Translations under genes and position numbers: made by a program
Shown here: one piece after another, positions 1 through 17,670 of the stretch
Layout: the number at the start of each line of letters is the position of its first letter
Position numbering within the stretch: the stretch's first letter is position 1
Notes under the pieces: generated by a model
What the model saw: the letters and a program-made list of their open reading frames with translations, nothing else
The model's database searches: none
Told to the model about the DNA's origin: nothing
From: Formosa sp. Hel1_33_131
GTDB lineage: Bacteria > Bacteroidota > Bacteroidia > Flavobacteriales > Flavobacteriaceae
Direction: 5' to 3'
Length of the DNA stretch: 32,000 nucleotides
NCBI RefSeq assembly: GCF_001735745.1
Contig: NZ_CP017260.1
Location: 540,001-572,000, forward strand

Positions 1-3000
1 AGGTATTGATCGACACTACCTTGTATTTTATTTTTAGTATATGAATAAAAAGTTTCCTGAATTACTCCTTGATTGTTTTCATTAAAATCTCTATAAACAT
101 TATTTGTCTTAGATAATAATTGGTTAGAAGTATTATAATTAGACACGCTTAATAATCTCCCGATGGCTGATTTATTATCCTTAACGACATATTTTGTAGA
201 AGAAATTTTAGCATTATTGCCATTAACTGAATATGTACCAGAACTTTCGGTAGGAGTTTTATTTATATATAAAAGACCTAAAGAGTATGAACTATTATCC
301 GTTTTGACTATAGGTTTAAATGTTTCAAAATTATAAACCGTTTTAGAGCTGACTGTATTGTCTGATCCAATTTTTTCTGTTGTAACATACCCATAAGTCA
401 CACCAGGAGGGGGCATTTCGGTGACATATTCAATCTCCTTATCAAATTTAGAAGGCGCATAAGATGTTATTCCTGAAGATCTATAACTAGAACTATTTGG
501 ATCACTACTGTAATTTAAATCATTATAGTAATAATTAGTTTTATAAGATATTGTTCCATCTGTAATAGCAATATCCTTCACCCTAAGCCCACCTCCTTTT
601 CTGTTTTTTTTAGAATCTTTAGCAAATATTTTAAACAAAAATGTTACGGCTGTATCATCCCTACAAGTATCTGGCAAATCTGGAAATTGACCCCTTAATA
701 AATTTTGCATTGTATGATCGGAAAAACCAAGCCCCATAGGCCCTGAACTATATAACCAGTTTAGCCCATCATTATAATTATGAGTATGGCTTAATGAAGT
801 TTCAAAAGTCACCTTAGTATCCGAAACATAGACTACATTAACAAATTCATTCTGTATATCTATACTGCCAGACCTATCTTCACAAAAAGGGTCACGATAC
901 TCATGTAATAACGCAGCCCATATATCAACTTTAACGGGTGCACCTACTTGAAAATAATCGTTGAAATAATTTAAATCTTTACTATCCGTTTTATTTTCTA
1001 TATCAAATCTTAGTTTCCCTTCATGATTATAAAAATTAAATTGAATTCCATCATTATATGTTCTGAAATTCGTTGCAGCTTCTTGATAAAAATCATCAGG
1101 CTCATATGTAATTTCAAATTTTGAACCTAATGGAGTTGAAATATATTTTAAACTTGAGCTTTCAGGGTAATCAGCCGTGAACCCCCAAGAATCTTCATTA
1201 TCACTATTGTATATTGAAACATCATTTAAGTAACTGAACTCATAAGGTGGAATTAAACTTTCTTGTCCCCTTCCTAAAAAGTTTACATTACTTAAAGTAA
1301 GCTTCCCTTTTTGAGCTAACAATGAATTTGGAGAATTTCGCATCGATGGATAGGTTTCGTCATAATGCATTTCAATGTGATTAATTTTAAAATCATTTAT
1401 ATTGGAAAAATTATTAGCAATATCATTAGAGTTTAATACATTATTATAAAACTCGCCTTTCCACTCCTTTAAGCTTCCATTATTTAATAACGGATAATTT
1501 GCATGATATACTTCTCTATAAGCAGTATCATAAACTCTTATCTCTTCTTCAAAATACATTTCACCAATTTCTTTTCCGTTACTTTCTGATGTATAGGTTT
1601 TAATATTAGAAGGTACATCTTCATTTTTAAGAACAAAAATTTCTTTTAGCCTCAATGATTTATGTTTATTGATATTAACATATTCTTTATGCCAAATATT
1701 AGAAAAATAGACCCCAGTAGAAATATTCATAGCATGATTATCATATATGCCTTTAACAAAATATGTTGAACCACTATGCCCTAATACTTGTTTGTCTCCA
1801 TAATTATAAACTCGTGGAGAAGTTAAACTCGCTCCAATGTTAATTTCTACTCCATAATTATCATTTCTATCTTCTTTTACAAATAATGCGGTATGTGTTC
1901 TAGTTTTAATCATATCCAAATAATAAATCTCTTTCACCCCCCATCCATAAGATTTTGATTGATCATTCTTGTGATAAGTTAAATCCTTAGTTGGAGTTCT
2001 CCATGCATATCCATCACTCCATTTTCCATAGTCAAAACGAACCCAATACCCATAATCTCCTTGATTTGGGGAAATATTATCATTACTCATTTTAATATAA
2101 TCGGGACCTGTAATTGCAGTGAGTAGCCAGTGGGTCGCATAAGGAGTAAACTGTTGTTCTTCATAAAACTTATTGTCAATATTATCTTCAAGTTCTGTAG
2201 ATCTAGAAAACATTTCTTTTTGATATACTGGTAAAGAATAATGATAAACAAGACCATCTTTATTAGTCACCCTATAAGCTCCAATACCTTCTAAAGGCTT
2301 ATTAGAACGATTCACTTCATTAGCTTCTATAATTATATTTTGATTATTAATAATTTCACCATTAGTGAATACTTCAATAAAAGGACCATTATTAATTCTT
2401 TGGTTTGCAGAATTATAATTACTGTGAGCGGTACCGTTTATAGAGGTAGTATGATTAGTCTGCTCATTGTCGACATCTATATCCGTTATTAAATTTACAG
2501 ATGAAAAAGTAGGCCAAGAGCCAGAACTTAAGCTCATATATGAAGCATTTATGTTTTCAAAATAAAAATTTATATCATTATTTGGATCATCAACCTGTTT
2601 AGAAAAACTGTTATCATAATAACTAAAAGTAGATTGAGTAGCATAGCTAGTATTATTATGAGCACTAGAGCTTACACGATTATATCTATTTTTAAAAGTC
2701 CCATGCTCAAACAAGTACGGAGTAATAGAGCCACTAAGCCCCTGAGAACTCAAAGTGTAGCTGTCATAAGAAGGTCCTGTAAAATTATTCTCTAATAATT
2801 GTTGATTATCCGCAGTTTTATAAATGGACTGATAAGCATCAACTGACGCATTCGTCGGATTCAAAGAATTTAATATCATTTCATCTGTTTGACCTATATA
2901 CAAAATCCCTAGACAATCATAACTAGCTCTATCATACCACGAATATCTTTGTTTTCTTCTAGAATAGCCGAAATTAAATAATTCAATATTAACGTCAACG

Positions 3001-3770
3001 TAAATTACTGTTCCAATGGTTCTTGTGTGAAGATTGGGAGAAAGACTCCCAGATCCAGATATCTGTAAAGACCCTCCAGCAACTTTCAAATAATGATTTC
3101 CGTTAGAGTTTAGAGTAATGCCCGTACCATCCACTTCCAGTTTAAAACTAAAATCATTCCTTTTATCATAATTAATAGACGCATAAGTATTCTTATAAAT
3201 CGTATATGTATATCCAATACCGCCTTCATTATTGGCTCTTATGCTATGTCGACCAATTGAAAGAGTAGCTCCGTAACTAGTGTCATAAGAAGTTTCTCCT
3301 CCAAATGCTTTATTCACTCTATAAGAAGCAAATAATCCAACAGAAAAATTACTGTTTTTCCAACCAATAGATGCACTTATGTCATGTGTAGTGACTGTGC
3401 CACCAGCATCATATAAAATTGTTGTTTTTTTTCTATTATTCCAGTCATCAGGGTACCCATTCACACTTCTATTGATGGCTCCTGGGTTCAAGCTCCACCC
3501 CAAGCCCACCCAAGAGGCTTCTTGATCCATGGCAATCCCTGCGTGGTAGGACAATGATAAAGGATAGCCCACTTCTGGACCTGGCACATTTAATAAGGGC
3601 AATACATAACTTAAATCGCCTGTTGCTAAGTTCACCATATCCGTGGCATCTACGGGTTCAAAACTGGCGGCTTCAGGAGCATTGGGCCCTTGCGCAGTGC
3701 TCATTTGTATAGTCAATACAAGGAGAACAAAACGGAGGCTGAAGGTTTTTATTTGAGGGTGAATTTTCAT
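1..3770 (-). CDS. Large secreted SpvB/TcdB-N-like protein (Rhs/Tc-toxin-family-like), 5' part only, at least 1256 codons, continues past the left edge
   Basis: Absent from the ORF track. I scanned the minus-strand frame by hand (codons on plus positions 3k..3k+2). No in-frame tta/cta/tca triplet occurs between 3 and 3770. The ATG is at 3770-3768, 4 nt after the upstream gene's stop. Translation begins MKIHPQIKTFSLRFVLLVLTIQMSTAQGPNAPEAASFEPVDATDMVNLATGDLSYVLPLLNVPGPEVGYPLSLSYHAGIAMDQEASWVGLGWSLNPGAINRSVNGYPDDW, i.e. a signal peptide plus an SpvB-like motif. Later motifs are YATHWLLTAITGPDY, GKLTLSNVNFLGRGQESLIPPYEFSY, KGGGLRVKDIAITDG and SSGITSYAPS. The family call rests on remembered motif patterns, not a search. 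Confidence 0.8.
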   Translation of the reverse strand, partial: MKIHPQIKTFSLRFVLLVLTIQMSTAQGPNAPEAASFEPVDATDMVNLATGDLSYVLPLLNVPGPEVGYPLSLSYHAGIAMDQEASWVGLGWSLNPGAINRSVNGYPDDWNNRKKTTILYDAGGTVTTHDISASIGWKNSNFSVGLFASYRVNKAFGGETSYDTSYGATLSIGRHSIRANNEGGIGYTYTIYKNTYASINYDKRNDFSFKLEVDGTGITLNSNGNHYLKVAGGSLQISGSGSLSPNLHTRTIGTVIYVDVNIELFNFGYSRRKQRYSWYDRASYDCLGILYIGQTDEMILNSLNPTNASVDAYQSIYKTADNQQLLENNFTGPSYDSYTLSSQGLSGSITPYLFEHGTFKNRYNRVSSSAHNNTSYATQSTFSYYDNSFSKQVDDPNNDINFYFENINASYMSLSSGSWPTFSSVNLITDIDVDNEQTNHTTSINGTAHSNYNSANQRINNGPFIEVFTNGEIINNQNIIIEANEVNRSNKPLEGIGAYRVTNKDGLVYHYSLPVYQKEMFSRSTELEDNIDNKFYEEQQFTPYATHWLLTAITGPDYIKMSNDNISPNQGDYGYWVRFDYGKWSDGYAWRTPTKDLTYHKNDQSKSYGWGVKEIYYLDMIKTRTHTALFVKEDRNDNYGVEINIGASLTSPRVYNYGDKQVLGHSGSTYFVKGIYDNHAMNISTGVYFSNIWHKEYVNINKHKSLRLKEIFVLKNEDVPSNIKTYTSESNGKEIGEMYFEEEIRVYDTAYREVYHANYPLLNNGSLKEWKGEFYNNVLNSNDIANNFSNINDFKINHIEMHYDETYPSMRNSPNSLLAQKGKLTLSNVNFLGRGQESLIPPYEFSYLNDVSIYNSDNEDSWGFTADYPESSSLKYISTPLGSKFEITYEPDDFYQEAATNFRTYNDGIQFNFYNHEGKLRFDIENKTDSKDLNYFNDYFQVGAPVKVDIWAALLHEYRDPFCEDRSGSIDIQNEFVNVVYVSDTKVTFETSLSHTHNYNDGLNWLYSSGPMGLGFSDHTMQNLLRGQFPDLPDTCRDDTAVTFLFKIFAKDSKKNRKGGGLRVKDIAITDGTISYKTNYYYNDLNYSSDPNSSSYRSSGITSYAPSKFDKEIEYVTEMPPPGVTYGYVTTEKIGSDNTVSSKTVYNFETFKPIVKTDNSSYSLGLLYINKTPTESSGTYSVNGNNAKISSTKYVVKDNKSAIGRLLSVSNYNTSNQLLSKTNNVYRDFNENNQGVIQETFYSYTKNKIQGSVDQY

Positions 3771-3774
3771 AACG

Positions 3775-4434
3775 TTATTCTTTTTGGGTGCATTTGTTGT
3801 TGTAATAGGATACTATTTTTTCGAGGTCCCTTTTTTTAAAGGTTCGGGATTGTATTTTTTTTACCAAACTGGGGCAGTCTTTAAAATAGGCAGAAGCCGC
3901 CTTTTTAAAGTTTTTGCTAAACAATTGGTTTGACCCCAAATGGGTGGCTTCTTTTTGGCCTTCTTTACGGACGTAAAAATTATTGATATTATAGCTGTGC
4001 CCAAATGTAAAACCAACAGACGCCCCACCGCCACCAAAGCCGCCTGCGCCACCTCCAAAATTGTGAGGGCTATGATAGGTTCTACTCAATTCATACAGAC
4101 TTAAATACCCGGTAAGTTTAACTTCCAACACACGTGGTTTCTTTTTGTTTTGTACGCGGATATAGGCATAGGTATGAAATTCGTCGTATTCCTTAATTTT
4201 CACATGTTTTAGGGTTTTAAAAGGGTACTTTTTAGCTTTGGATTTCTTGTTTTTTCTAAACTTCACTCGGTCCTGAGAAATCAATTTCCCAAAGCCTTTT
4301 TTAACCGTTCCATCCTTAAAGGTTAAAATGGCTTCTGAGCGTTGCGCATTCAGGGTTGCAGTGCAAATAAGCAGTGCAACTCCCATTAGGAGGCTTCTTA
4401 AGATTTGGATGTTTGGTTTTATATTCATTTGCAA
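3775..4434 (-). CDS. Hypothetical secreted protein with a Gly-rich segment (FGGGAGGFGGGGAS)
   Basis: 219-aa ORF. N-terminal signal peptide (LLMGVALLICTATLNAQ). 5-nt gap to the upstream gene and 4 nt to the giant ORF. Confidence 0.7.
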   Translation of the reverse strand: MQMNIKPNIQILRSLLMGVALLICTATLNAQRSEAILTFKDGTVKKGFGKLISQDRVKFRKNKKSKAKKYPFKTLKHVKIKEYDEFHTYAYIRVQNKKKPRVLEVKLTGYLSLYELSRTYHSPHNFGGGAGGFGGGGASVGFTFGHSYNINNFYVRKEGQKEATHLGSNQLFSKNFKKAASAYFKDCPSLVKKIQSRTFKKRDLEKIVSYYNNKCTQKE

Positions 4435-4439
4435 TGCCC

Positions 4440-5066
4440 TTACAATTTTAAGGTCGGTTCATTTTTTAATGTTTGAGTCGCTATTTTAAACTTCACTTCG
4501 CCTGTGTATAAGCCCAAATCCTCAATGGTGAAGTTGAGGTAGTCCTGGTTTAGTTTGTCGGCCTCTCTTGGATAGACAAACATCATGGTGGTGGCACGGC
4601 TCATTCCATACATCCGTGGATAGATGTAATCCGCCAGCTCAATGGTGTCTTTCTGTGCTGTAAACAGGTGTACCTTGTCTTGCATTCCAAACGCCAATTG
4701 GTTGACCATGGCTCCAAATTCATTTTGGTTTTTGGGCGCAACACTCAACAATTCCTGGTTGTTTTTGCTCATGCTTAAATTGAAATAGAGGTACTTATGG
4801 TATTTTTCTCTGGATGTTTGCACTTGAGTTTCTGTTGCCGACGCATCGCCTAATTCTTGTTTGACCAACAAATCGGTAGGACGGTACAAGAGGGTGTATT
4901 CGACGCCATTGATCGTTTTGTGGTGTGTGTAACCGTTTTGTTCGTCTTGTATGTACATGAGTAAATCGTCTTCGTTCTCAAACGTTTTATGACCTTGACA
5001 CCCGATGAGGAGCACTCCTAAAAAACTTAGGGTAAGCATTTTTTGAAAGAGGTGTTTTTTAGCCAT
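4440..5066 (-). CDS. Hypothetical lipoprotein
   Basis: 208-aa ORF. Lipobox LLIGC after a hydrophobic leader (MLTLSFLGVLLIGCQG). Tightly packed in the operon. Confidence 0.7.
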   Translation of the reverse strand: MAKKHLFQKMLTLSFLGVLLIGCQGHKTFENEDDLLMYIQDEQNGYTHHKTINGVEYTLLYRPTDLLVKQELGDASATETQVQTSREKYHKYLYFNLSMSKNNQELLSVAPKNQNEFGAMVNQLAFGMQDKVHLFTAQKDTIELADYIYPRMYGMSRATTMMFVYPREADKLNQDYLNFTIEDLGLYTGEVKFKIATQTLKNEPTLKL

Positions 5067-5078
5067 CCGTTTGATTCC

Positions 5079-5741
5079 TTATTGTTTTGGTTCTATCTCC
5101 TCTTCTTCCATTAGCTCAGCTCCCTGTTCTTCCATCAGTTGTTCAAACACAGTGTCCAGTTCTTTTTTCCCGAACAATGCCAGTAATATGTTCTGATCCG
5201 CGATGATAAAGGGATCTTTACGCAACAAGGATTTTAAATCGTCTAAAGTTGCGATTTTTGGCAGCGGAATTTTTTCCACTTTTGGGGCGACTTCTTCTGC
5301 AATGGTCTCAGCATTCGGCTCCATGAGTTCGTCCTCTTTATCGTTGAAAATTGGTGTTTCGAGGTCTTCAATAGTGATGCCTTGTTGTTCCATCTCCCAC
5401 TTATAAGCCACGGTTGAAACCTCGCTATGGAGTTGGGCTTGTTTCTGTAGGAGTTTTGTTCCCAGTGGGCTGCTGTAAAAAGCATACAAGCCTTTCAACT
5501 CCTTTGGGGTGAATTGTTTTTGATAGACGGCTTCAATACCTGTGTAAAGCGACTTTGCTAAAGCGGTGCTGTCTTTCATTTTTTCAGAAGGCGCTACGGA
5601 TTGGAATTGTTGTAAGAACTCCAACCTAGAGTCCATATCGGTTTGATGTAGGAGCTTCACCAGTTGAGAGGCATCGGTTTCCTGTGCCTGCCCCTGAACT
5701 GTGAGGCATAGAATCATTAAAACAAAAAGTGATTTTATCAT
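5079..5741 (-). CDS. DUF2059-like secreted protein with an acidic C-terminal tail
   Basis: 220-aa ORF. Signal peptide MIKSLFVLMILCLTVQGQAQ. The segment YQKQFTPKELKGLYAFYSSPLGTKLL matches the DUF2059 pattern as I remember it. The C-terminus is E-rich (ELMEEEEIEPKQ). Confidence 0.65.
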   Translation of the reverse strand: MIKSLFVLMILCLTVQGQAQETDASQLVKLLHQTDMDSRLEFLQQFQSVAPSEKMKDSTALAKSLYTGIEAVYQKQFTPKELKGLYAFYSSPLGTKLLQKQAQLHSEVSTVAYKWEMEQQGITIEDLETPIFNDKEDELMEPNAETIAEEVAPKVEKIPLPKIATLDDLKSLLRKDPFIIADQNILLALFGKKELDTVFEQLMEEQGAELMEEEEIEPKQ

Positions 5742-5747
5742 AATTAT

Positions 5748-7136
5748 TTAATTTTTTAGATGGACTTCCAAAGCTTCCAATCGCGCTTCTAAGCTTTTGT
5801 TTTTTTGGTGTTGGGCTTCTAACTCTTTTTGTTGCTGGATAGTGTAAAGCGTGAGTTCTTCAATTTTTTGGAGGAGTTTGATGTTCATTTCTGCAAGATG
5901 AATCCCGTTTTCTTCCATTTCTTTAGCCGATGCTATTTCTGGAAGGTGTTTGTTTTTTGTAATAAACTGCTCGACTGTTTTTAATGTTGGTAACTTATAC
6001 GTGTCTTCAAAAACAAAATCTGCACCACCTGCTGTAGCAGTGACTCTCACTTCTCTTGTAGATATATTGCCCTTGACGGTTAATTTATAGCCAGAATCGG
6101 GGGTGTTAGTGCCAATTCCAATATTGCCAGTAGAAATATGAGCAAATAAATATGCTTTCTCTAAAAACTCATTATTTGTATATTCTAGCTGAGGACCACT
6201 ACTATCACGAATAAAGTAAGTGCCCTCATCTTGAAAAACCACCCCTCCCATATCATTATAAGTTCCTCCTGGGCGTACCCATTTTGCGGTAGCTTGATTC
6301 CATTTTGGAGGCCCATAACTACCGGTTAACCAATCGTCTCGTATCCAACTATTTTCAGAAGAAGCACTCGTTGCACCAATAGAGGTTTTTCTTAACTGTA
6401 CTCCGCTATTTACATGTAACTTGTATTGTGGATTTGTTGTTCCAATTCCGACATTGCCAGTTATAATAACTTTATTTCCTATATCGGTAATGATTTTAGC
6501 CCAAGTTCCAGCTCCAAGCCTATTGGTACTTCTAAAATACATTGTAGGAGATGAACTTGAATTTTTAATTGCGATTTGTCCATTATATTTATACGTAGAA
6601 CTATTTGAAACGTGGTTCATGTTTAAGCCCCAAAACCATCCACCTGATTCTGGACCATTTGTAGCATTATAACTTTCATAAAAACCACTTTGCCATATTG
6701 TATTCCAATCTATTGTTCTGTTAGGATCGTTTAACATTAATTTATTACTCAATATATTTCCATTGACGTGGAGTTTCTCGCTTGGAGTTGTTGTTCCAAT
6801 TCCGACATTTCCGGTTGCTCCTACATGAAATAAAGTTGATCCATTTTGGACTGTAGAATTATATCCCTTTTTCCTAACTTGAAAAGCATTTCTGTTTGTA
6901 TTTCCATACATCCAAACTATTGGAGATATTTGATGAGAACCAGAAAGAATACCAAAACCTCCTTGTGATTGGTTTGTAGTATCTGTACCACGTTGATCAC
7001 CAGCAAACTGATATAGTGTTCCAGTACCATCACCAAAAATCATAGCGCCGTTATTTGTAGAGGATGTGTCGTCTAATTGAGCAAATAGTAAAGAAATATT
7101 AAAAATTAAAAGAAGTGTAAGATTTGTTTTTTTCAT
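5748..7136 (-). CDS. Tail-fibre-like repeat protein with a C-terminal coiled coil
   Basis: 462-aa ORF. Signal peptide MKKTNLTLLLIFNISLLFAQ. Three copies of a G-N-[VI]-G-I-G-T-x-x-P...KL-x-V motif (GNVGIGTTTPSEKLHVNGN, GNVGIGTTNPQYKLHVNSG, GNIGIGTNTPDSGYKLTVKGN). The C-terminus reads ADFVFEDTYKLPTLKTVEQFITKNKHLPEI followed by heptad-like LLQKIEELTLYTIQQQKELEAQ. Confidence 0.75.
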   Translation of the reverse strand: MKKTNLTLLLIFNISLLFAQLDDTSSTNNGAMIFGDGTGTLYQFAGDQRGTDTTNQSQGGFGILSGSHQISPIVWMYGNTNRNAFQVRKKGYNSTVQNGSTLFHVGATGNVGIGTTTPSEKLHVNGNILSNKLMLNDPNRTIDWNTIWQSGFYESYNATNGPESGGWFWGLNMNHVSNSSTYKYNGQIAIKNSSSSPTMYFRSTNRLGAGTWAKIITDIGNKVIITGNVGIGTTNPQYKLHVNSGVQLRKTSIGATSASSENSWIRDDWLTGSYGPPKWNQATAKWVRPGGTYNDMGGVVFQDEGTYFIRDSSGPQLEYTNNEFLEKAYLFAHISTGNIGIGTNTPDSGYKLTVKGNISTREVRVTATAGGADFVFEDTYKLPTLKTVEQFITKNKHLPEIASAKEMEENGIHLAEMNIKLLQKIEELTLYTIQQQKELEAQHQKNKSLEARLEALEVHLKN

Positions 7137-7169: not shown

Positions 7170-7610
7170 TTATTGCCCCTCAAATTCCGCATTTAAACCG
7201 TCTAAAACGGTTTGGGTTAAATCGGAGGCCTCGTTGGCATACATGATATTTCCACTGCCGCTGGCTCCAAAAATAATTTGATGCCCTTGCTGTTTACCAT
7301 AGTCCTTCACATAGTCATTAATATCATTGATGACGGTTTGCGTGGCTTTCTTGTCTTCTTCCTGGATTTGTTTTTGAACGGCTTGTTGGTAGTTATTGAT
7401 CTGTTGTTGTTTATTGCCCAACAATTCCTGCTTGAGTTCCAATTCTTTTTTACTCATTTTGGAACGTTCTTTTTCGTAGATTTTCAATTCATTTTGCCAG
7501 TCCACGAGCAGACTGTCCACATTGGCATTGAGAGTTTTGGCTTTTTCTTCAAATTGCGCACGCACTATTTTGGTGCGTTTGTATCCATCCAATAATTTAT
7601 TGACATCCAC
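7170..7610 (-). CDS. skp: OmpH/Skp-family periplasmic chaperone body (GTG-start ORF lacking its signal peptide, possible pseudogene)
   Basis: 146-aa ORF. VDVNKLLDGYKRTKIVRAQFEEKAKTL plus a K/E/Q-rich coiled coil is typical of OmpH. The first codon is GTG, directly preceded by an in-frame TAA (7613-7611). Confidence 0.65.
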   Translation of the reverse strand: MDVNKLLDGYKRTKIVRAQFEEKAKTLNANVDSLLVDWQNELKIYEKERSKMSKKELELKQELLGNKQQQINNYQQAVQKQIQEEDKKATQTVINDINDYVKDYGKQQGHQIIFGASGSGNIMYANEASDLTQTVLDGLNAEFEGQ

Positions 7611-7613
7611 TTA

Positions 7614-7703
7614 CACTTGGTTGGAAGACGATTGTAAATAAAAAAAGGATCCAATGCTGATTAAAAGTGCAGCAATGGCTACAGGGAAGACGAGTTTATT
7701 CAT
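7614..7703 (-). other. Orphan 30-codon signal-peptide ORF in frame with skp, cut off by TAA
   Basis: The reverse complement reads ATG AAT AAA CTC GTC TTC CCT GTA GCC ATT GCT GCA CTT TTA ATC AGC ATT GGA TCC TTT TTT TAT TTA CAA TCG TCT TCC AAC CAA GTG TAA. This translates as MNKLVFPVAIAALLISIGSFFYLQSSSNQV*. It is in the same frame as 7170-7610. Confidence 0.6.
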
Positions 7704-7897
7704 AATTTTTAATAGATTTATTAGGTAGCATAAAACTATTAAAATACTGTTAAATAAAAAAATGGTTGTCTTGTTTTTTAACGTTTAACTAACATTTTAA
7801 CTCATTCTTATCTGATATAAAAAAACGGACATAGTTCCGACTCGTGTTAAAATTTTATATATATTTATCCCATTGTTTCTCATTAATCCCCAAAAAG

Positions 7898-8293
7898 ATG
7901 AAAAAACTGCCTGCTTATAATCTACAAGAAATCCTCATTGTGCTGGTCATTATTGGGATTTTACTGCTGTTGGCATTGCCCAACTTGATGCCCCTCATTA
8001 GCAAAGCCAAAAGTGTGGAAGCGCAACTCCAATTAAGTCACCTCTTCAATTCACAAACCACCTACCGTTATATGAATTCGAAATATTCAATGGACTTAGA
8101 AACCATTGATTTTGAAGCCCCAAAAACCGTAAAAGAAGAGGGGACTTCCAATTACCGCTATGAAATTATAAGTGCCACCAACCACCAATTCAAAGCCCGT
8201 GCGACTGCCATTACTGATTTTGATGGCGATGGAGTGTTTAATGTGTGGGAAATTGACGAAGATGGCAAACCAAAACAAACCGTAAAAGATTAA
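7898..8293 (+). CDS. Type IV pilin / pseudopilin with a class III signal peptide
   Basis: MKKLPA|YNLQEILIVLVIIGILLLLALPNL aligns with the Bacteroidetes prepilin pattern K-A-F-T-L-I-E-L-L-V-V-I-A-I-I-G-I-L, with Glu at +5. I prefer the ATG at 7898 to the GTG at 7844 used in the ORF track. Confidence 0.8.
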   Translation: MKKLPAYNLQEILIVLVIIGILLLLALPNLMPLISKAKSVEAQLQLSHLFNSQTTYRYMNSKYSMDLETIDFEAPKTVKEEGTSNYRYEIISATNHQFKARATAITDFDGDGVFNVWEIDEDGKPKQTVKD

Positions 8294-8294
8294 A

Positions 8295-8771
8295 ATGGGG
8301 ATCCTAAAACTGATCTTATTGAGTGCCTTTGCGAGCGTCGCCTATCAGGATTTGAAGGACCGCTCTGTGTATTGGTTTTTGTTTCCAGCCATTGGCATTT
8401 GCGTCGGAATTCTCTTTTTTCAGGAAACCTCAGCGGCCTTGTTTTTGGAAGCCATCCTACTCAATTTGGTATTTATTGGTCTGTTGTTGGGCGTGATCTT
8501 TTTGTATGCGACCTATAAACTAAAAATGAAATTATCGGACACAATTGGTTTGGGTGATGGACTGTTGTTTGTCGCGCTGGCATTTGGTTTTGCCCAATTG
8601 ACTTTTATGATTGTCTTTGTGTTTGGATTGGTAGGTTCGTTGCTTTTACATCTAGTTCTAAAAAAATCTAAATCAGAATCCGTGCCCTTAGCGGGCTATA
8701 TGAGTGTGTTTTTTGCATTCGTTTATGCTGCCCATTGGATGGGTTTTTTAACCCCTGCTTATACCTTATAA
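8295..8771 (+). CDS. Short A24-family prepilin peptidase (no methyltransferase domain)
   Basis: 158-aa polytopic membrane protein. Both catalytic Asp contexts are present (AYQDLKDRSVY and GLGDGLLF). It starts 2 nt after the pilin stop. Confidence 0.75.
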   Translation: MGILKLILLSAFASVAYQDLKDRSVYWFLFPAIGICVGILFFQETSAALFLEAILLNLVFIGLLLGVIFLYATYKLKMKLSDTIGLGDGLLFVALAFGFAQLTFMIVFVFGLVGSLLLHLVLKKSKSESVPLAGYMSVFFAFVYAAHWMGFLTPAYTL

Positions 8772-8772
8772 T

Positions 8773-10179
8773 TTGAACGAAGATTTTCACATAGCAACCC
8801 ATTTATCGCAACTTATTTCGAGTGCGCAAGCCTACCATTACCGGATCATTCCTGTGGAGGCGCACAATGGCAGCTTGACGTTTAAATCCGATCAAGTGTC
8901 TGATCATTTGACACAGGAATTACAAATCATCTTAAATAAAGAGATTGAACTCCTTGAAGACTCCACCGAAAACATACAACAGTATTTGAGTGTGAATTTT
9001 AGACCACAGTCTAAAAACCCCCAAGAAGACTTGCGTTACAGCACGGATTTTTTAGAAAAACTACTCTTGACCGCTAAAGATATTGGGAGTAGTGACATTC
9101 ATTTTGAGCCTTATGAATTTAGGTGTCGCGTGCGCTACCGATTGGATGGGAAATTGAAAGAACAGTTTTTTATTTCTTTGGAAGAATACCCAGTGATTAT
9201 TAACAAACTCAAGATAAAAGCAAATTTAGACATCTCCGAAAAACGCCTCCCACAAGATGGGCGGATCACGGTCAAAGCCAATGGCGATGAATTTGACATT
9301 CGGGTGTCCACCCTCCCCACGCTGCATGGCGAAAAAATTGTGCTTCGTATTTTAAGTAAAGATGCCACCCTTGTTAATTTAAGTGAATTGGGATTTACAG
9401 CCTCGGAACTCAAGCTCTATACGGAAACGCTGAAAAAACCCAACGGAATTATTTTAATTTCTGGCCCCACAGGCTCTGGAAAAACGACAACGCTCTATGC
9501 CACCCTGAAGCTTCTGAACGACGAAACAACTAATATTCTTACCATTGAAGATCCGATAGAATATACGCTAGAAGGCATCAACCAAGTGCAGCTTAAAGAA
9601 AGTATTGGATTGGATTTTTCGAGTACTTTAAGAACCTTTTTACGACAGGATCCTGATGTGATTATGGTGGGAGAAATTCGGGATGTAAAAACTGCTAACA
9701 TGGCCATTCGCGCCGCGTTGACAGGGCATTTGGTATTGTCCACCATCCATACCAATTCGGCTTGGGCAACGATTTCGAGATTAATTGACATGGGCATCCC
9801 TTCCTTTTTAATCGCCAGCACCTTAAACGTCAGTGTTGCGCAGCGTTTGGTTCGGAAACTATGTCCCGTTTGCAAAAAAGAAGCTCCCATCTCAAAAGGG
9901 TTATTCCCTGCTGATTTTAAAATACCCAACAACTTAAAAACGCATTTCAAAGCGGAAGGCTGTAACGATTGTTACCACACAGGCTATCAAGGACGACGGG
10001 CGATTTATGAGATTTTGCCGATCCAAAAAGCCTTAACCGAACACATCAAACAAAACACCTTAGAAATTGAAGATTATAGTATAAAAAATAATATTAAAAC
10101 CCTTAAAGACAATGCATTAGATCTAGTAATCAACGGTGTCACTTCTATAGATGAAGTATATACCCTGCTTTCTAGTTAA
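8773..10179 (+). CDS. pilB: PilB/GspE-family type IV filament assembly ATPase
   Basis: Walker A GPTGSGKTTT, Walker B/Asp box DPDVIMVGEIRD, His box GHLVLSTIHTN, and the tetracysteine motif CPVCKK...CNDCYHTGYQGR. Apparent TTG start 2 nt after the peptidase stop. Confidence 0.9.
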   Translation: MNEDFHIATHLSQLISSAQAYHYRIIPVEAHNGSLTFKSDQVSDHLTQELQIILNKEIELLEDSTENIQQYLSVNFRPQSKNPQEDLRYSTDFLEKLLLTAKDIGSSDIHFEPYEFRCRVRYRLDGKLKEQFFISLEEYPVIINKLKIKANLDISEKRLPQDGRITVKANGDEFDIRVSTLPTLHGEKIVLRILSKDATLVNLSELGFTASELKLYTETLKKPNGIILISGPTGSGKTTTLYATLKLLNDETTNILTIEDPIEYTLEGINQVQLKESIGLDFSSTLRTFLRQDPDVIMVGEIRDVKTANMAIRAALTGHLVLSTIHTNSAWATISRLIDMGIPSFLIASTLNVSVAQRLVRKLCPVCKKEAPISKGLFPADFKIPNNLKTHFKAEGCNDCYHTGYQGRRAIYEILPIQKALTEHIKQNTLEIEDYSIKNNIKTLKDNALDLVINGVTSIDEVYTLLSS

Positions 10180-10219
10180 AATATAGCTGCTGTCATTACC
10201 CTAGTTTTATCTCTAAAAA

Positions 10220-12439
10220 ATGAAAAAAATAATCCCCATAGTTGCCTTATTAATTTGCAGTTTCACTCATGCGCAAAATCCGGATCAACGTATTTTGAAC
10301 ATCAAAAATCAGTTGGAATTGTTATCAACGGAAGTGAATGGATTGACCGAAAATGTCAAGACTGAAATTAACGTTGACAACATCACCCTCTCCAATTTTT
10401 TGTTAGCGGTTTCGGATGTTCATAAAGTAAATATTAATGTGTCGCCAGAACTGAATCAAATTAGTATCGCAAATAATTTTACGGACGTATCCGTCGCAGA
10501 TTTACTGGTATTTTTATGTAAAGAATACAACTTGACCATTGATTTTACAGGAAACATCCTTTCAATTAAACAGTATTTTGAAACCCCCGAAACCCCCGAA
10601 AAACGGGTCATTCCCATCACCTACGACCCAAATAATCAGACCATTTCTATCGATGCGAAAGGAGATTCGCTTTACGACGTATTCAAACGCATTATGGATG
10701 AAACTGGGAAAAACTTAGTGTTTTCCCCAGGTCTTGAAGCTAAATTGTTGACGGCCTATATTCAACAAACGCCTTTTGATACTGCGATGGACAATATGGC
10801 TTTTGCAAATAATTTATATGTAGAACAATCAAAAGATGGGTTTTATCTCTTTGAAGATAATTCGCCTAGCGGAACAACTTCTAATTCAAATACTTCCAAT
10901 TCTGGAAATCAACGCCCTGCAAGATCCCGGAATTCTAACTTCTTTTTTAATGTGCTCAACTTAGAAAATCAATTGTTAGAAGTTGATTTTGTCAATACAT
11001 CCATTGCTGATATTATCAATGATATTGGCAATGCCCTCAACATTGATGTGTTTACTGCAACACCTTTAGACCAAGCAGGTATGGCGACCTTTAAAGCCAA
11101 GTCTATTTCTTTTGATGCTCTATTAACCAAGATTTTTGAAGGACAAACGACTCAAACTTCCGAAACTTCAAATCCTAACAATCCTAACAATTCAAATTTT
11201 AATAACCCGAACCAACGGTCATTATCAAATGTAAAAAGTTCCAAAGGCTCCAAGCATTTTACCTACAAAAAAGAAGGCACCATTTATTTCTTTGGAACCG
11301 AAAATCAGTTGAGTGTTCGTGAAGTTGCGATCATTCATTTACAACACCGTTCTGTAGAATTGCTATCAGACCCAAGCGGAGGCGGCAGTCGCAGCAGCAG
11401 TCGAAACGCTAGAAGTCAAGTGCAAAATACCAATACAAACTCAAGAAATAACACGAATTCTAATTCGAATCAAATTGATAATTACAGCAATCGTAACCGA
11501 GAACAACTGAATACCAATTCAAATCAATCCTTTAGTAATTACAGTAGCAAAGCGGAGGCATTGGTGAATATTCTTCCAGATGAAATTAAAAAAGATTTGG
11601 ACATTAAAGTGGATTATGAACTCAACAGTTTTTACGTCAATGGCCCGAGCAGTAACATTGGACGGTTCAAGGATTTTATATCTAAAATTGACAAACCTGT
11701 CCCCGTTATTTTAATTGAAGTTATGATGATTGAGGTTAACACCAACGCTATTGTAGAAACAGGAGTCAGTTGGGGCATTGGAAAAGAGCCAACAACCACT
11801 AGCGGTGGAATCTATCCAGAAACAGACCTTAGCTTAGGCGCACACACTATTAATAAGGTTATTGGTGGCTTTGACGGCTTTGGGTCTTTTAACTTAGGGA
11901 AAGTGATTCCTAATTTTTTCGCAACAATTAAAGCCATGGAATCCAATGGAAATTTAAAGGTGCGCTCCACTCCCAAACTCTCAACGCTAAATGGACACCG
12001 TGCGCGATTTTCAAATGGACAAACCTCCTATTACGCCGTTACCCAACGTAATATTTATGGTAATGACAATCCACAAACGTCTGAAATTACAAACTACCAG
12101 CCTATAGAAGCAGAATTGGGGCTCACCATCAAACCCATTGTTTCGGGAGATGGACAAGTCACCTTGGATATTTTTGTAATTCAGTCCAGTTTTAGAGGTC
12201 GAATTTCAAAAGATGCACCGCCAGATATTAGCTCTCGAGAATTCAGTTCCATTATTCGCGTGAGAGATCAAGACATTGTCGTTTTAGGAGGTCTGGAGGA
12301 GCGACGAACAAATAACTCAGGGTCGGGAGTTCCCTTTTTATCAAGAATCCCCATTATAAAATGGCTGTTTAGCAAACGGGTACGAGAAGGTCGTAAATCT
12401 AAATTAACTGTGTTAATCAAACCCACCATTATTTACTAA
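10220..12439 (+). CDS. Secretin (GspD/PilQ family) with Asn/Ser-rich low-complexity inserts
   Basis: Signal peptide MKKIIPIVALLICSFTHAQ. C-terminal secretin motifs STPKLSTLNGHRARF, VVLGGL and VPFLSRIPIIKWLF. Confidence 0.9.
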   Translation: MKKIIPIVALLICSFTHAQNPDQRILNIKNQLELLSTEVNGLTENVKTEINVDNITLSNFLLAVSDVHKVNINVSPELNQISIANNFTDVSVADLLVFLCKEYNLTIDFTGNILSIKQYFETPETPEKRVIPITYDPNNQTISIDAKGDSLYDVFKRIMDETGKNLVFSPGLEAKLLTAYIQQTPFDTAMDNMAFANNLYVEQSKDGFYLFEDNSPSGTTSNSNTSNSGNQRPARSRNSNFFFNVLNLENQLLEVDFVNTSIADIINDIGNALNIDVFTATPLDQAGMATFKAKSISFDALLTKIFEGQTTQTSETSNPNNPNNSNFNNPNQRSLSNVKSSKGSKHFTYKKEGTIYFFGTENQLSVREVAIIHLQHRSVELLSDPSGGGSRSSSRNARSQVQNTNTNSRNNTNSNSNQIDNYSNRNREQLNTNSNQSFSNYSSKAEALVNILPDEIKKDLDIKVDYELNSFYVNGPSSNIGRFKDFISKIDKPVPVILIEVMMIEVNTNAIVETGVSWGIGKEPTTTSGGIYPETDLSLGAHTINKVIGGFDGFGSFNLGKVIPNFFATIKAMESNGNLKVRSTPKLSTLNGHRARFSNGQTSYYAVTQRNIYGNDNPQTSEITNYQPIEAELGLTIKPIVSGDGQVTLDIFVIQSSFRGRISKDAPPDISSREFSSIIRVRDQDIVVLGGLEERRTNNSGSGVPFLSRIPIIKWLFSKRVREGRKSKLTVLIKPTIIY

Positions 12440-13641
12440 TGCTAAATACCATTTGGACATATCTACAGTATGGAAAGCACTTTTGTGGGGTTGAACTCAG
12501 CACCCATAATCAGACTGAAATTCTAAATGCAACGGTACTGCTTCAATCTAAAAAAGAGCTCAACATCAGTGCTTCTTTTAAAGATAATACCATTGAAAAT
12601 CTATCGAAACATCTACCGAAACACCAACATATTGTTTTGATCGTTAATAATGACAAAGTACTTTCTAAAACAATTGAAAATAAACAAACGGATGCTTTAA
12701 AATTAGTTTATAGCGCATTCCCAAACATCAATCTTGAAGATTTCTATTTTGAAGTCCTCTCTCAAAAGAACTCGCATTTTATAAATATCTGTCGGAAAGA
12801 TTATATAAATACACTTGTAGAAACCTATGCGAAACATCAACTTTTAATACTCAATATATCTTTAGGAAATCATTCTCTGAGCAACCTCATGGAGTTTATC
12901 CAAGAGGAAACGATTTACAGTTCTAATGCTAAAATCACTCTGGAAAACGATGACATCTTACAGATTGAAAAGGGAGCTGTTGTTTCAGAAAATTATGATA
13001 TAAATGGCAGTAGTGTGACCAATCATCAGTTGCTCTCTTTTTCGGGAGCCCTCCAACCTATTTTAAAAAACAGCAACACAGAAACCAACTTTTCAACAGA
13101 AAAAAAACACTTAGAAGACAGTTACAAACAAACGCGGTTTTATAATCTATTTATAAAATTTGGAGGTCTCTTTATTTTAGGGTTATTATTAATTAACTTT
13201 TTCTTTTTTAATCATCATTTCGATAGCGTAAATGAATTGGAGCAAGTCTCAGAAATAAATCAAGTTACCAAAAAACAAATCATTATACTTAATGAAACCG
13301 TCTCCAAAAAACAGAAAATGGTAGATGATTTACTAAAAAGCAATGGATCTAAAAGCTCGTTTTACAGTCATACTATTATCGAAAGCTTACCGGAAACCAT
13401 TCTGCTCTCAGACTACCATTACCAGCCTTTGTTAAGGCGCATTAAAGAAGATGCTCCTATTCAATTAAGTGAAGATCACATTCTCGTTTCAGGCAGCTGT
13501 ATTAAGAGCTCTGATTTTTCAGAATGGATTAATCATTTAGAAAAAATGGGGTGGATTGCTAAAGTTGCTATTGTAGAGTATCGCAATACGAGTTCCAAAA
13601 AATCAGAATTTAAAGTTTCTATCCTTATAAGAAATGACTAA
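12439..13641 (+). CDS. PilM-like cytoplasmic domain fused to a PilN-like bitopic domain (assembly/alignment protein)
   Basis: 400 aa with a single TM (FIKFGGLFILGLLLINFFFF), then a coiled coil and a periplasmic domain. The start overlaps the secretin stop (TAATG). Assignment rests on architecture and position only. Confidence 0.55.
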   Translation: MLNTIWTYLQYGKHFCGVELSTHNQTEILNATVLLQSKKELNISASFKDNTIENLSKHLPKHQHIVLIVNNDKVLSKTIENKQTDALKLVYSAFPNINLEDFYFEVLSQKNSHFINICRKDYINTLVETYAKHQLLILNISLGNHSLSNLMEFIQEETIYSSNAKITLENDDILQIEKGAVVSENYDINGSSVTNHQLLSFSGALQPILKNSNTETNFSTEKKHLEDSYKQTRFYNLFIKFGGLFILGLLLINFFFFNHHFDSVNELEQVSEINQVTKKQIIILNETVSKKQKMVDDLLKSNGSKSSFYSHTIIESLPETILLSDYHYQPLLRRIKEDAPIQLSEDHILVSGSCIKSSDFSEWINHLEKMGWIAKVAIVEYRNTSSKKSEFKVSILIRND

Positions 13642-14146
13642 ACAGCAAAAAAATATAGCCCTCACAGTATCTTTTATTTTGGCATTGATCCTTTGTTACC
13701 AACTCGCCATCAAAAACACCCTTCAACTAAAAGAACAACATACCCATTTAGCAAATGAGGCTGTATCTCTCAAAAGTGCACCCCAGCAATTAGCCTTGTT
13801 AAAACAAAAAAATGTTTATTATGATTCGCTCTTAACAAGGTTCCAATTGGGTGGGTCTTCGATTCAAAACAATCTTCTTAAAGTCATCAATACCTACGCC
13901 AGTAATAACGCATTAAAGGTGGTTGATTTTCTAGAACCCCACGTCTCTACAAATGATAACTTAGTGATCAAAACCTATGATTTCACGCTTGAAGGCACTT
14001 ATAACAACATCAATCAACTTGTCTATTTATTAGAACAAAAAACTAAATTTGGGGAGGTCATCAGTCTTCATTTTGAAAAAAAGAAAAACTATAGAACGGG
14101 ACGGTTTTATTTGCAAGCAAGGATTTTGTTAAAGAGTTTTGGCTGA
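13634..14146 (+). CDS. PilO-like bitopic assembly protein
   Basis: 170 aa with an N-terminal TM (IALTVSFILALILCYQLAI) followed by a coiled coil. 8-nt overlap with the upstream gene (ATGACTAA). Assignment rests on architecture and position only. Confidence 0.5.
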   Translation: MTKQQKNIALTVSFILALILCYQLAIKNTLQLKEQHTHLANEAVSLKSAPQQLALLKQKNVYYDSLLTRFQLGGSSIQNNLLKVINTYASNNALKVVDFLEPHVSTNDNLVIKTYDFTLEGTYNNINQLVYLLEQKTKFGEVISLHFEKKKNYRTGRFYLQARILLKSFG

Positions 14147-14201
14147 TTTTTAATCACAATCTAAAACTGAGACACAAACTCTCAACTTTAACATTCATAA
14201 T

Positions 14202-14286
14202 GCGCACGTGGCGGAATTGGTAGACGCGCTAGCTTGAGGGGCTAGTGGGAATTATTCCCGTGGAAGTTCGAGTCTTCTCGTGCGCA
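14202..14286 (+). tRNA. tRNA-Leu (anticodon GAG), class II with a long variable arm
   Basis: Folded by hand. Acceptor stem GCGCACG/CGTGCGC. Anticodon stem CTAGC/GCTAG with loop TTGAGGG (anticodon GAG). Long variable arm TGGGAATTATTCCCGTG. T arm GGAAG-TTCGAGT-CTTCT. Discriminator A. No encoded CCA. Confidence 0.9.
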
Positions 14287-14364
14287 CTTTTGTATTATTT
14301 AAGTTCAACATTTTGTTTTTAATGTTTTTTTGATTAGTTTAGTTGACCCAAATCTTATTAAAAC

Positions 14365-15264
14365 ATGAACACAATTAAAACCTCCTTTAGCATAAAGGAC
14401 TTAGAAAATCTTTCTGGAATTAAAGCCCATACCATTCGTATATGGGAGAAACGCTACAATCTTCTCGTGCCAGAACGCACAGACACCAACATTAGGACTT
14501 ACAATTTAAGAAGCTTACAAAAGCTGATGAACATTAGTTTCTTAAACAGTAATGGCTATAAAGTCTCTAGAATTGCAGTACTTGATGAGTTTCAAATTGC
14601 AGCAAAAGTAAAAGAGGTTTCGTATTTAGGAAATACGGAACCACATGCCTTTAATGCCTTTAAACTGGCGATGCTAAATTTTGACCAAGCACTTTTTTAC
14701 AACACCTATAACCGTTTGTTAGAGGAAAAAAGCTTTCGTGAAATTTTTTACGAACTCTTCATTCCCATCATACAAGACATCGGTTTTTTATGGCAAACAC
14801 TCACTATCAAGCCTTCCCATGAGCATTTTTTATCTGTTCATATTCGACAAAAAGTGTTGATTCATATTGAGCGCATACAAAGTTCAAACCCGAAACCTGA
14901 TACAAAAACGTTTGTGTTGTTTTTACCACTCAATGAAATTCATGATATTGGACTTTTGTTTATAAACTACGAACTTTTGAGTCGTGGATACCACACAATT
15001 TATCTTGGTGAAAGTGTCCCTATTGAGGACCTTACCCTTCTTAACGCTCTTTATGAAGACATTACATACGTCTCTTATTTCACCATCAAACCAAACCCTG
15101 AAGAGGTTGAAGGTTATTTGAAAAAACTCTATACGGAAGTAATTAAAAACACTACTAATTCGGTGCGGTTACTTGGAACACGTTTTATAGATTCTAAACC
15201 CAAAAAACTTCCAAAACAGATGAAACTCTATAAATCTATCAAGAATTTAGTTAAAGATTTGTAA
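14365..15264 (+). CDS. carH: CarH/LitR-type MerR-family transcriptional regulator with a B12-binding photoreceptor domain
   Basis: N-terminal MerR HTH (FSIKDLENLSGIKAHTIRIWEKRYNLLVPERTDTNIRTY). Wx9EH motif (WQTLTIKPSHEH). ExHxxG cobalamin-ligand motif (EIHDIG). Directly upstream of crtI-crtB-crtZ-cyclase. Confidence 0.8.
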   Translation: MNTIKTSFSIKDLENLSGIKAHTIRIWEKRYNLLVPERTDTNIRTYNLRSLQKLMNISFLNSNGYKVSRIAVLDEFQIAAKVKEVSYLGNTEPHAFNAFKLAMLNFDQALFYNTYNRLLEEKSFREIFYELFIPIIQDIGFLWQTLTIKPSHEHFLSVHIRQKVLIHIERIQSSNPKPDTKTFVLFLPLNEIHDIGLLFINYELLSRGYHTIYLGESVPIEDLTLLNALYEDITYVSYFTIKPNPEEVEGYLKKLYTEVIKNTTNSVRLLGTRFIDSKPKKLPKQMKLYKSIKNLVKDL

Positions 15265-15319
15265 AAAATCGTTAGACACATACTAACTGTATTGGCTTTT
15301 GCTTATTTTTATACGCTAA

Positions 15320-16789: not shown

Positions 16790-16822
16790 GCAGCTTAGTT
16801 AAAAAATTTAAAATTTAAGTTT

Positions 16823-17662
16823 ATGAAGTCCATATTTGATGCTGTATCACAAGACTGTAGTCGGATTATTACTCAGACCTATAGCACCTCGTTTTCGATG
16901 GCCACAAAAATGCTGTCGAACTCGATTCGTCAGGATATTTATAATATCTACGGCTTTGTACGCTTGGCGGATGAAATTGTAGATTCATTTCACGACTATG
17001 ACAAACAAGCGTTATTCATTCAATTTGAAGCAGATTTAGAAGCGGCACTTATTAATAAAATCAGCCTCAACCCTATTTTGAATTCCTTTCAACACACCTA
17101 TCATACCTACGCTATTGATAAAGACATGGTAGATGCTTTTATGAATTCAATGCGTCAGGATTTGCATAAGACGGTCTATCACACGGATGAAGAATATAAA
17201 AATTACATTTATGGCTCTGCCGATGTGGTTGGTCTGATGTGTTTAAAAGTCTTTGTAAAAGGGGATGATAAACGCTATGAGTCGCTCAAGAAAACAGCTA
17301 TGGCGTTGGGCTCTGCATTTCAAAAAGTAAATTTCTTGAGAGATTTAAAAGCAGATCACGATGAATTGAATCGAACATACTTTCCTAACACGGATTTAAA
17401 TAATTTAGATGAAATCTCTAAAAAGGCAATTATTGACGATATTGAAAATGATTTCGCTGAAGGATTGAAAGGGATTAAACAACTGCCTTTAGAAGCTAAG
17501 TTTGGTGTTTTTATGGCGTACCGTTATTACAATCAACTGCTTAAAAAACTAAAAACAACCCCTGCACTCGAAATCAAAAGTACCCGAATTCGAGTCCCTG
17601 ATTATAAAAAAGTAGAACTGCTCACCCGTAGTTATGTCAAATATCAACTCAATCTATTATAG
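16823..17662 (+). CDS. crtB: Phytoene synthase
   Basis: 279 aa. Squalene/phytoene synthase motifs (YGFVRLADEIVD, YIYGSADVVGLM, AFQKVNFLRDLKAD). Confidence 0.9.
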   Translation: MKSIFDAVSQDCSRIITQTYSTSFSMATKMLSNSIRQDIYNIYGFVRLADEIVDSFHDYDKQALFIQFEADLEAALINKISLNPILNSFQHTYHTYAIDKDMVDAFMNSMRQDLHKTVYHTDEEYKNYIYGSADVVGLMCLKVFVKGDDKRYESLKKTAMALGSAFQKVNFLRDLKADHDELNRTYFPNTDLNNLDEISKKAIIDDIENDFAEGLKGIKQLPLEAKFGVFMAYRYYNQLLKKLKTTPALEIKSTRIRVPDYKKVELLTRSYVKYQLNLL

Positions 17663-17670
17663 CCTTTATT

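Follow-up and report, generated by a model that had tools for sequence, protein, structure and literature searches.

Rhs polymorphic toxins are built in a standard order: an N-terminal DUF6531-type element, repeats, core and toxin. How those exported by Sec leave Gram-negative cells and enter their targets is largely unknown, and they have been filed under 'T2SS' (type II secretion system) for their signal peptide only. In the scheme of Zhang et al. (2012, PMC3482391), the 'T2SS' trafficking class of Rhs toxins is defined by the signal peptide alone and the TcdB/TcaC mode by SpvB together with a beta-propeller; a term search of that text gives no mention of OmpH. The TANFOR toxins of Bacteroidetes are presented in PMC7073777 as a phylum-restricted, Sec-dependent polymorphic class of unknown outer-membrane route, and type IX secretion (the T9SS) as the only widespread two-step route described in Bacteroidota. 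Here, we analysed 32,000 nucleotides of the genome of Formosa sp. Hel1_33_131 (Flavobacteriaceae; assembly GCF_001735745.1, contig NZ_CP017260.1, positions 540,001 to 572,000 of the forward strand). This whole stretch is called the window, and coordinates are given in it unless a contig is named. Its left end is taken up by a very long minus-strand gene, hereafter gene 1. We think it rather probable that gene 1 encodes a non-toxic, 'B-like' partner of Rhs fold, always placed upstream of the gene (gene 2) of a Sec-exported Rhs polymorphic toxin; how the partner acts is something that we infer.

Gene 1 is a real gene. Its frame opens at the ATG at 3770, which is the first possible start and lies 4 nt past the stop of the preceding gene, and runs on the minus strand for 1256 codons without a stop up to the window edge. 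An initial annotation made from the letters of the window had read this frame by hand, and translation confirms it. The nearest in-frame stop on the 5' side is a TAG 14 codons before the ATG, with no ATG, GTG or TTG between them. The track of open reading frames (ORFs) of the window has no entry below 3775, but the absence of gene 1 from it is an artefact and not biology, because the track omits ORFs that run off an end. Homologues of the protein number 1650 at E<=1e-3, typically with 1650-1850 amino acids (aa), and are mostly unnamed or called 'hypothetical'. One full-length homologue, P0001 of contig L001, has 1687 aa and differs from the window product by one residue. Since L001 is 99.63% identical in nucleotides to window positions 1-5879, P0001 is a legitimate extension of gene 1, whose protein goes about 431 residues past the window edge. 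G+C content is 29-32% across gene 1 (window 1-3000) and 34-44% in the remaining window, which could reflect either the composition bias of an N/S/T/Y/K-rich protein or a foreign origin. The parts of gene 1 within the window are the following, the quality of the structural model being given as predicted local distance difference test (pLDDT).

1..3770, minus strand: gene 1, codons 1-1256 of 1687; open frame, full-length P0001 on L001, at least 1650 homologues.
3690..3770, minus strand: putative Sec signal peptide, aa 1-27 (ending in STAQ, before G), read from the sequence.
3435..3689, minus strand: highly conserved N-terminal block, aa 28-112, with a motif similar to the starts of DUF6531 and SpvB; 65-88% identity across the family.
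2901..3434, minus strand: poorly conserved antiparallel beta-meander, aa 113-290; ~12-14 consecutive strands predicted by both structural models, pLDDT 28-82.
3..2288, minus strand: long region of beta-hairpins, aa ~495-1256, the fold of which is predicted to resemble an Rhs shell; AlphaFold2 pLDDT mostly 78-94.

By eye, the protein starts with a K/R-rich segment, followed by the hydrophobic FVLLVLTI and by the STAQ that would end the signal peptide; conservation is high from G28, where the mature N-terminus begins. Among 56 homologues the residues W548, L549, T551, G555, D557, D572, G574, W576, F579, Y581 and G582 are invariant, as are W584, L824, L826, P841, Y847, G1060, G1061, R1063, G1100, G1204 and N1213. 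All the motif strings quoted by the initial annotation are present in the protein and they coincide with the most conserved columns of the family. The same annotation took gene 1 for a giant, self-contained toxin of Rhs or Tc type, with shell and toxic C-terminus beyond the window. In favour of this idea are the size of the protein, its presumed secretion, an Rhs-like predicted fold and the YD repeat near its end. Yet, the completed sequence refutes it, and we leave it hardly any probability: the protein ends 431 residues past the window without DPxG context, its full 1687 aa show neither an Rhs-associated core (TIGR03696) nor a toxin domain in Pfam and NCBIfam, and its C-terminus is conserved family-wide instead of variable. 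This is the very outcome that the annotation had named as speaking against a toxin. P0001 also matches no family at E<=0.01 in NCBIfam.

The toxin is found in the next gene. A scan of species-representative genomes gave 522 stretches encoding a relative of gene 1, of which the 80 best were fetched, and linkage was counted in 84 loci. The fetched loci come almost all from Flavobacteriaceae, with a few from metagenome-assembled genomes of other Bacteroidota, and some genomes have more than one locus. Cultured Flavobacterium strains, among them CF108, CF136 and F. cupreum, are represented in these loci, and F. hydatis and F. hercynium have homologues as well. A gene 2 homologue lies 3' of gene 1 and on the same strand in 74 of the 74 loci with enough downstream sequence, the remaining 10 of the 84 having at most 2.4 kb downstream of gene 1. 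The gap between the two genes does not exceed 110 nt in 69 of the 74 loci and has a median of ~8 nt. In L013, L026, L051 and L075 there are an extra 1.7 or 2.8 kb between them, presumably an inserted gene, and in L054 the gap is of 340 nt.

The 5' side of gene 1 has a fixed order too, that of a gene for an OmpH/Skp-like chaperone (70 of 84 loci, 57-87% identity) and then, directly 5' of gene 1, a gene for a putative lipoprotein of 208 aa (73 of 84 loci, 34-70% identity). These are cassette members and not housekeeping neighbours, because in multi-copy genomes every copy of the cassette has chaperone and lipoprotein genes of its own. Fibre-like genes are found further 5' in 43 of the 84 loci, in 0-6 tandem copies, and in 12 of them a gene for a 219-aa protein separates gene 1 from the lipoprotein gene. 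The cassette runs from the fibre genes, where present, through OmpH/Skp-like chaperone and lipoprotein to gene 1, which the Rhs toxin follows, and ends with an immunity gene and spare toxin tips. This conserved set occurs across marine and soil Flavobacteriaceae and is apparently undescribed, as the open-access papers and preprints searched gave no description of the gene 1 family or of the cassette.

On L001, the stop of gene 1 overlaps the start of gene 2 by 11 nt. The product of gene 2 has 1561 aa, with an apparent signal peptide, RHS/YD repeats, an Rhs-associated core and a C-terminal phage-type lysozyme. The core, which scores 54 bits with TIGR03696 (cut-off 32.5), ends in DPDGG and the tail matches Phage_lysozyme of Pfam at E=2e-30, whereas a DUF6531 of its own is not matched at E<=0.1 in Pfam. 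TIGR03696 is above its cut-off in gene 2 of three loci, and partner proteins from three loci have ~1000 aa in common, at ~52% identity and ending exactly at DPxG, with N- and C-terminal regions that are unrelated. Judged by sequence, this layout is that of a classic polymorphic toxin. The gene 2 profile matches SGS1 (8fjp, E=8e-28, the strongest solved structure), YenC2 and RhsA; hence gene 2 is a member of Rhs at the level of sequence and gene 1 is not. On the 3' side of its Rhs toxin, L001 has at 13598-15562 a 162-aa ORF with a hydrophobic N-terminus, which is a candidate immunity protein, then an orphan Rhs core-tip with an unrelated tail (TIGR03696 positions 41-75, E=2e-5), and after it a membrane protein of the RDD family. 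Orphan tips of this kind are also present in L027, L031, L045, L054, L057, L058 and L060. The toxin/immunity pair expected by the initial annotation thus exists, in the form of the lysozyme and the candidate immunity gene, but the next genes encode it and gene 1 does not.

Gene 1 might instead share an operon with the toxin gene and encode an independent secreted adhesin or glycan-binding protein, with no role in binding or delivering the toxin. Several features would fit. An insert at aa ~1488-1628 gives borderline profile matches, at E~0.01, to CBM61 (a carbohydrate-binding module, CBM) and to a galactose-binding lectin, one source labels a homologue 'sugar-binding protein', and the longer relatives owe their extra length to CARDB, BACON or TSP3 extensions. 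Furthermore, when the gene 1 and partner families are compared by hhalign only the terminal YD repeat aligns, i.e. gene 1 has no sequence homology to the partner's shell. Yet, a linkage of 74 in 74, across many genera and in multi-copy genomes, with stop and start overlapping or nearly abutting, is far tighter than unrelated functions predict, and the fold match of gene 1, given below, is an Rhs shell. We therefore regard an independent adhesin as improbable. A fusion of gene 1 with gene 2 was also considered for the unusually long members and rejected, their extra length being the CARDB, BACON or TSP3 extensions and not an Rhs core.

At the level of sequence, gene 1 resembles known Rhs and Tc proteins in two short places only, its N-terminal block and its extreme C-terminus. 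The window product has a sole match in Pfam, DUF6531 at E=0.015 and under its cut-off, and none in NCBIfam or among PDB sequences; a profile of 56 gene 1 sequences finds no solved TcB, Rhs or teneurin chain in the PDB. The N-terminal block in isolation gives at best 20.1 bits to DUF6531 (PF20148; E=8.2e-4, cut-off 24.1, positions 2-49 of 74), a match that recurs in 4 of 7 sequences (6 family members and the family consensus). Against SpvB its best score is 13.5 bits (E=0.043, cut-off 22), covering profile positions 3-55 of 287, and SpvB (PF03534) is found at E<=1 neither in the full protein nor in 29 relatives. The N-terminal motif thus has a real resemblance to SpvB and DUF6531, but on this sequence evidence it is a short shared element and not the SpvB-type domain initially assigned, which remains sub-threshold over about 55 of 287 profile positions. 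Extended to aa 28-135 (window 3366-3689), the block matches 10,332 representative clusters at E<=1e-3 and 3463 at <=1e-10; the top 150 matching clusters listed are all members of the gene 1 family.

At the other end, the RHS/YD repeat (PF05593 / TIGR01643) is found, as RHS_repeat of Pfam, in 24 of 29 relatives searched singly at E<=1, always at the extreme C-terminus (~aa 1640-1670), and it is the sole Pfam match of these searches. This terminal repeat scores 13.5 bits in P0001, against a cut-off of 22, and is above the cut-off in some relatives. A YD-repeat hidden Markov model (HMM) made from the partner gene matches around position 1650 of gene 1 in 38 of 56 members. The first YD/Rhs repeats had been announced at the window edge, at aa 1204-1226, but there the same HMM scores in only 4 of the 56 members, and repeat HMMs and hhalign detect no consistent YD repeats, cryptic or canonical, in the window part of gene 1.

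We modelled aa 28-1227 with AlphaFold2 from an alignment of 44 sequences and compared the model with the PDB by Foldseek. The model (pLDDT 77.9, predicted template-modelling score 0.76) consists almost wholly of long beta-hairpins. Its sole significant match is RhsA (7q97_A), an effector of type VI secretion (the T6SS), with E=6.7e-10 and a Foldseek probability of 0.84, followed by the TcC subunit YenC2 (4igl_B) at E=0.028; SGS1 (8fjp) is not among its top 50 fold matches. A second model, of the N-terminal 473 aa alone (aa 28-500), has a pLDDT of 64.5 and no significant structural neighbour in Foldseek, its weak matches being generic beta-barrels and meanders. The conserved N-terminal block has a pLDDT below 50 when modelled alone and of 77-88 in the larger model that includes the shell, which suggests that it packs against the downstream shell rather than folding alone. 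The candidate 'SpvB-like domain' was left unconfirmed by this poorer N-terminal model with its lack of significant fold matches. Neither model gives a TcB chain or a significant propeller in Foldseek, the propellers of DPP8/9 appearing only at E 0.2-0.4.

These results bear on whether gene 1 could be counted as a genuine TcB/TcaC subunit, one that docks by its beta-propeller onto the TcA injector of a Tc (ABC) complex. The order of the genes, B then C with the toxin in the C gene, the weak SpvB-start motif and the presence of YenC2 among the weak fold matches all recall such a complex. Yet, the SpvB match is the fragment described above, and the TcdB mid-domain pattern that had been read in the window is not borne out, since TcdB_toxin_midN and TcdB_toxin_midC are absent from 29 relatives at E<=1 in Pfam and fold searches give no significant propeller or TcB chain. 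Neither the genes called on L001-L004 nor the scanned ORFs of the window include a TcA-type family, whole genomes being unsearched. Both proteins have apparent Sec signal peptides, which Tc subunits are not known to have, and the cargo is a peptidoglycan hydrolase. A true TcB is thus largely refuted and seems to us very improbable. The 'B subunit' idea, a B gene followed by a C gene, survives as a functional analogy and not as family membership. What stands of the proposed membership in an Rhs toxin system comes from the weak DUF6531/SpvB-start matches and the predicted Rhs-shell-like fold, without gene 1 being itself a toxin.

Another possibility concerns the beta-meander at aa 113-290. If it formed a barrel of inverse autotransporter or TpsB type, delivered by the Skp-like chaperone, gene 1 would be an exporter or display platform anchored in the outer membrane, with the surface Rhs-like part holding or passing on the toxin. 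The cassette-specific OmpH/Skp-like chaperone and lipoprotein kept in 70-73 of 84 loci, as well as the hydrophobic residues that alternate, by eye, in the strands of this region, are in line with such an anchor. So are the weak fold matches of the N-terminal model, mostly barrels (porin-like 4ghb with a probability of 0.69, the designed 8uzl with 0.60, OmpA with 0.51), and the TonB-receptor barrels among those of the larger model. Domain scans of gene 1 and gene 2 in Pfam and NCBIfam make no other outer-membrane route evident: they show no PAAR, VgrG-associated or transmembrane N-terminal domain in either protein, no T9SS C-terminal sorting domain in P0001, and no T9SS sorting-domain model at E<=0.01 in three gene 2 proteins (NCBIfam). 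TIGR04183 and TIGR04131 are examples of models of the C-terminal sorting domain of type IX secretion. But the matches of aa 113-290 to porin, OmpA and designed transmembrane barrels are non-significant (best E=5.7e-3, template-modelling score at most 0.14), nowhere else in gene 1 are pLDDT and conservation as low as in this region, and the packing of the N-terminal block with the downstream shell in the model would be awkward with a membrane barrel in between. The membrane barrel is a speculative idea, and we hold an outer-membrane anchor to be unlikely.

We thus prefer to see gene 1 as the non-toxic partner of the Rhs toxin. In this reading two translationally coupled genes would divide between them the usual single-chain Rhs layout, in the manner of TcB/TcC. 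Gene 1 would contribute the DUF6531/SpvB-start-like element, a long and highly diverged beta-hairpin shell and, towards its end, the insert that resembles a carbohydrate-binding module and one canonical YD repeat. Gene 2 would bring canonical YD repeats together with the Rhs core and the toxin, which varies and in this strain is a lysozyme. Sec would take both proteins through the inner membrane, and they would come together in the periplasm with the help of the Skp-like chaperone. The gene 1 protein might then complete or cap the toxin container in a 1:1 complex, which we favour because the split layout and the translational coupling resemble the logic of TcB/TcC, and it may provide the export and target-binding functions for killing neighbouring bacteria. 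The apparent Sec signals of both proteins, the hydrophobic N-terminus of the candidate immunity protein and the peptidoglycan-hydrolase cargo suggest an antibacterial use and periplasmic assembly, while a role in binding outside the cell is suggested by the CBM-like insert, as it is by the CARDB, BACON or TSP3 parts added in longer relatives. The global superposition is poor (template-modelling score 0.06), as expected since the gene 1 model is a partial repetitive spiral, but this leaves the claim on the fold with one local match to rest on. Also, gene 2 may do with its own ~1000-aa shell, and this weakens the version of a split cocoon. Hence, it is only to the broader statement made at the outset that the confidence given there applies.

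The genes that precede gene 1 in the window, together with the divergent cluster beyond them, are as follows.

3775..4434, minus strand: 219-aa secreted Gly-rich protein, an optional cassette member (12 of 84 loci); no family or structure match.
4440..5066, minus strand: 208-aa putative lipoprotein (LLIGC lipobox), a conserved cassette member (73 of 84 loci); no family or structure match.
5079..5741, minus strand: 220-aa DUF2059 protein (Pfam DUF2059, E=1.5e-12), not a conserved cassette member (2 of 84 loci).
5748..7136, minus strand: 462-aa secreted fibre-like protein with GNVGIGTT repeats and a C-terminal coiled coil; relatives in 43 of 84 loci.
7170..7703, minus strand: OmpH/Skp-like periplasmic chaperone gene (Pfam OmpH, E=3e-21); homologue in 70 of 84 loci.
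7844..14146, plus strand: divergent T2SS/type-IV-pilus-like cluster (Pfam T2SSE 4e-131, Secretin 2e-39).

The structure searches of the 208-aa lipoprotein and the 219-aa protein were made against the PDB. The DUF2059 gene is one ORF of 220 aa in the window and two ORFs (105 and 104 aa) in L001 (1867-2530), in keeping with the nucleotide alignment of the two, which has a single gap. This alignment ends inside the fibre-like gene (L001 349-1860). The fibre-like protein has ~54% aa identity between the two strains, although the 5.9 kb next to its gene are 99.6% identical, and it occurs elsewhere in 0-6 tandem copies, a pattern typical of a receptor-binding protein being swapped. The fibre-like protein also has a weak match to the Bdellovibrio fibre bd2133 (8ond, E=8e-4). 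A TAA (7611-7613) interrupts the chaperone gene of the window at codon 31, where the signal peptide, which begins with the ATG at 7703, gives way to the mature part, and the next codon is a GTG; in Flavivirga the orthologue is intact, with 177 aa. The interrupted gene is either a pseudogene, the product of a sequencing error, or one restarted without its signal peptide.

The divergent cluster encodes a pilin-like protein, a 158-aa polytopic membrane protein, a T2SSE ATPase, a secretin, a 400-aa protein and a PilO-like protein, with sub-threshold matches to ComP_DUS (2e-5; 25.7 against 27.3 bits) and PilO (3e-4; 21.3 against 22 bits). No platform protein of PilC/GspF type was recognised in it. 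It adjoins the cassette in the window and in 27 of the 84 loci, from many genera, and does not in others, e.g. that of Tenacibaculum (L003). As an outer-membrane route for the toxin it is possible and unproven. The cassette as a whole might be a hitherto undescribed, Flavobacteriaceae-wide machine delivering Rhs toxins to neighbouring bacteria after Sec export, in which the carrier would be anchored in the outer membrane by its beta-meander or would exit by the secretin/T2SS-like system and the fibres would choose the target; this we put forward tentatively, as a possibility open to considerable doubt. If true, Rhs toxins would have in it a route of their own, different from T6SS, Tc and the type VII secretion system. 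After the secretin cluster, positions 14365-18120 of the plus strand hold a cluster of carotenoid type, with a MerR/B12-binding regulator, a phytoene-desaturase-like amine oxidase, a phytoene synthase and a protein of the fatty-acid-hydroxylase family.

What marks this Rhs polymorphic toxin system is thus its set of accessory genes, which is distinctive, conserved and apparently undescribed. Its fixed partners, across 84 loci, are concrete and testable candidates for the missing delivery machinery, in carriers of ecological importance such as marine polymer degraders, fish pathogens like Tenacibaculum and soil Flavobacterium. If the predicted fold is right, gene 1 shows that an Rhs-type shell can diverge beyond recognition by sequence, and domain-based surveys of Rhs and Tc proteins would therefore miss it.

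The closest known systems differ from it in composition. The Rhs/YD shell of the mosquito protein SGS1 (8fjp) is the solved structure closest in sequence to gene 2, but the gene 1 profile has no match to it. Single-chain Rhs effectors of T6SS, such as RhsA (7q97), provide the best structural match of the gene 1 model, and they resemble gene 2 in the logic of core and toxin and in the orphan toxin tips downstream. Here, however, no PAAR, VgrG-binding or transmembrane N-terminal domain was found, export is putatively by Sec, the layout appears split over two genes, and the body of gene 1 lacks YD repeats detectable in sequence. With TcB-TcC (YenB/YenC2, 4igl) the locus shares the adjacency of its genes, a large non-toxic first protein with an SpvB-start-like motif and a beta-hairpin shell, and a second protein with YD repeats, Rhs core and variable toxin. 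It differs by the lack of SpvB domain, TcdB mid domains and propeller, by the lack of a TcA gene in the flanks examined, and by its apparent Sec signals, Skp-like chaperone, lipoprotein and antibacterial lysozyme cargo. Like the TANFOR toxins, it is a phylum-restricted, Sec-dependent class of polymorphic toxins, but one based on Rhs and not on Fn3, NCBIfam giving no further match for gene 1 or gene 2 (the TANFOR model TIGR02542 included, if in the release). Gene 2 fits the class of Sec-dependent 'T2SS' RHS toxins, with its signal peptide, RHS repeats, core, toxin and immunity gene. To these, the locus adds elements that are not described in the open-access papers and preprints searched: an obligatory partner of 1700 aa, a chaperone and a lipoprotein.

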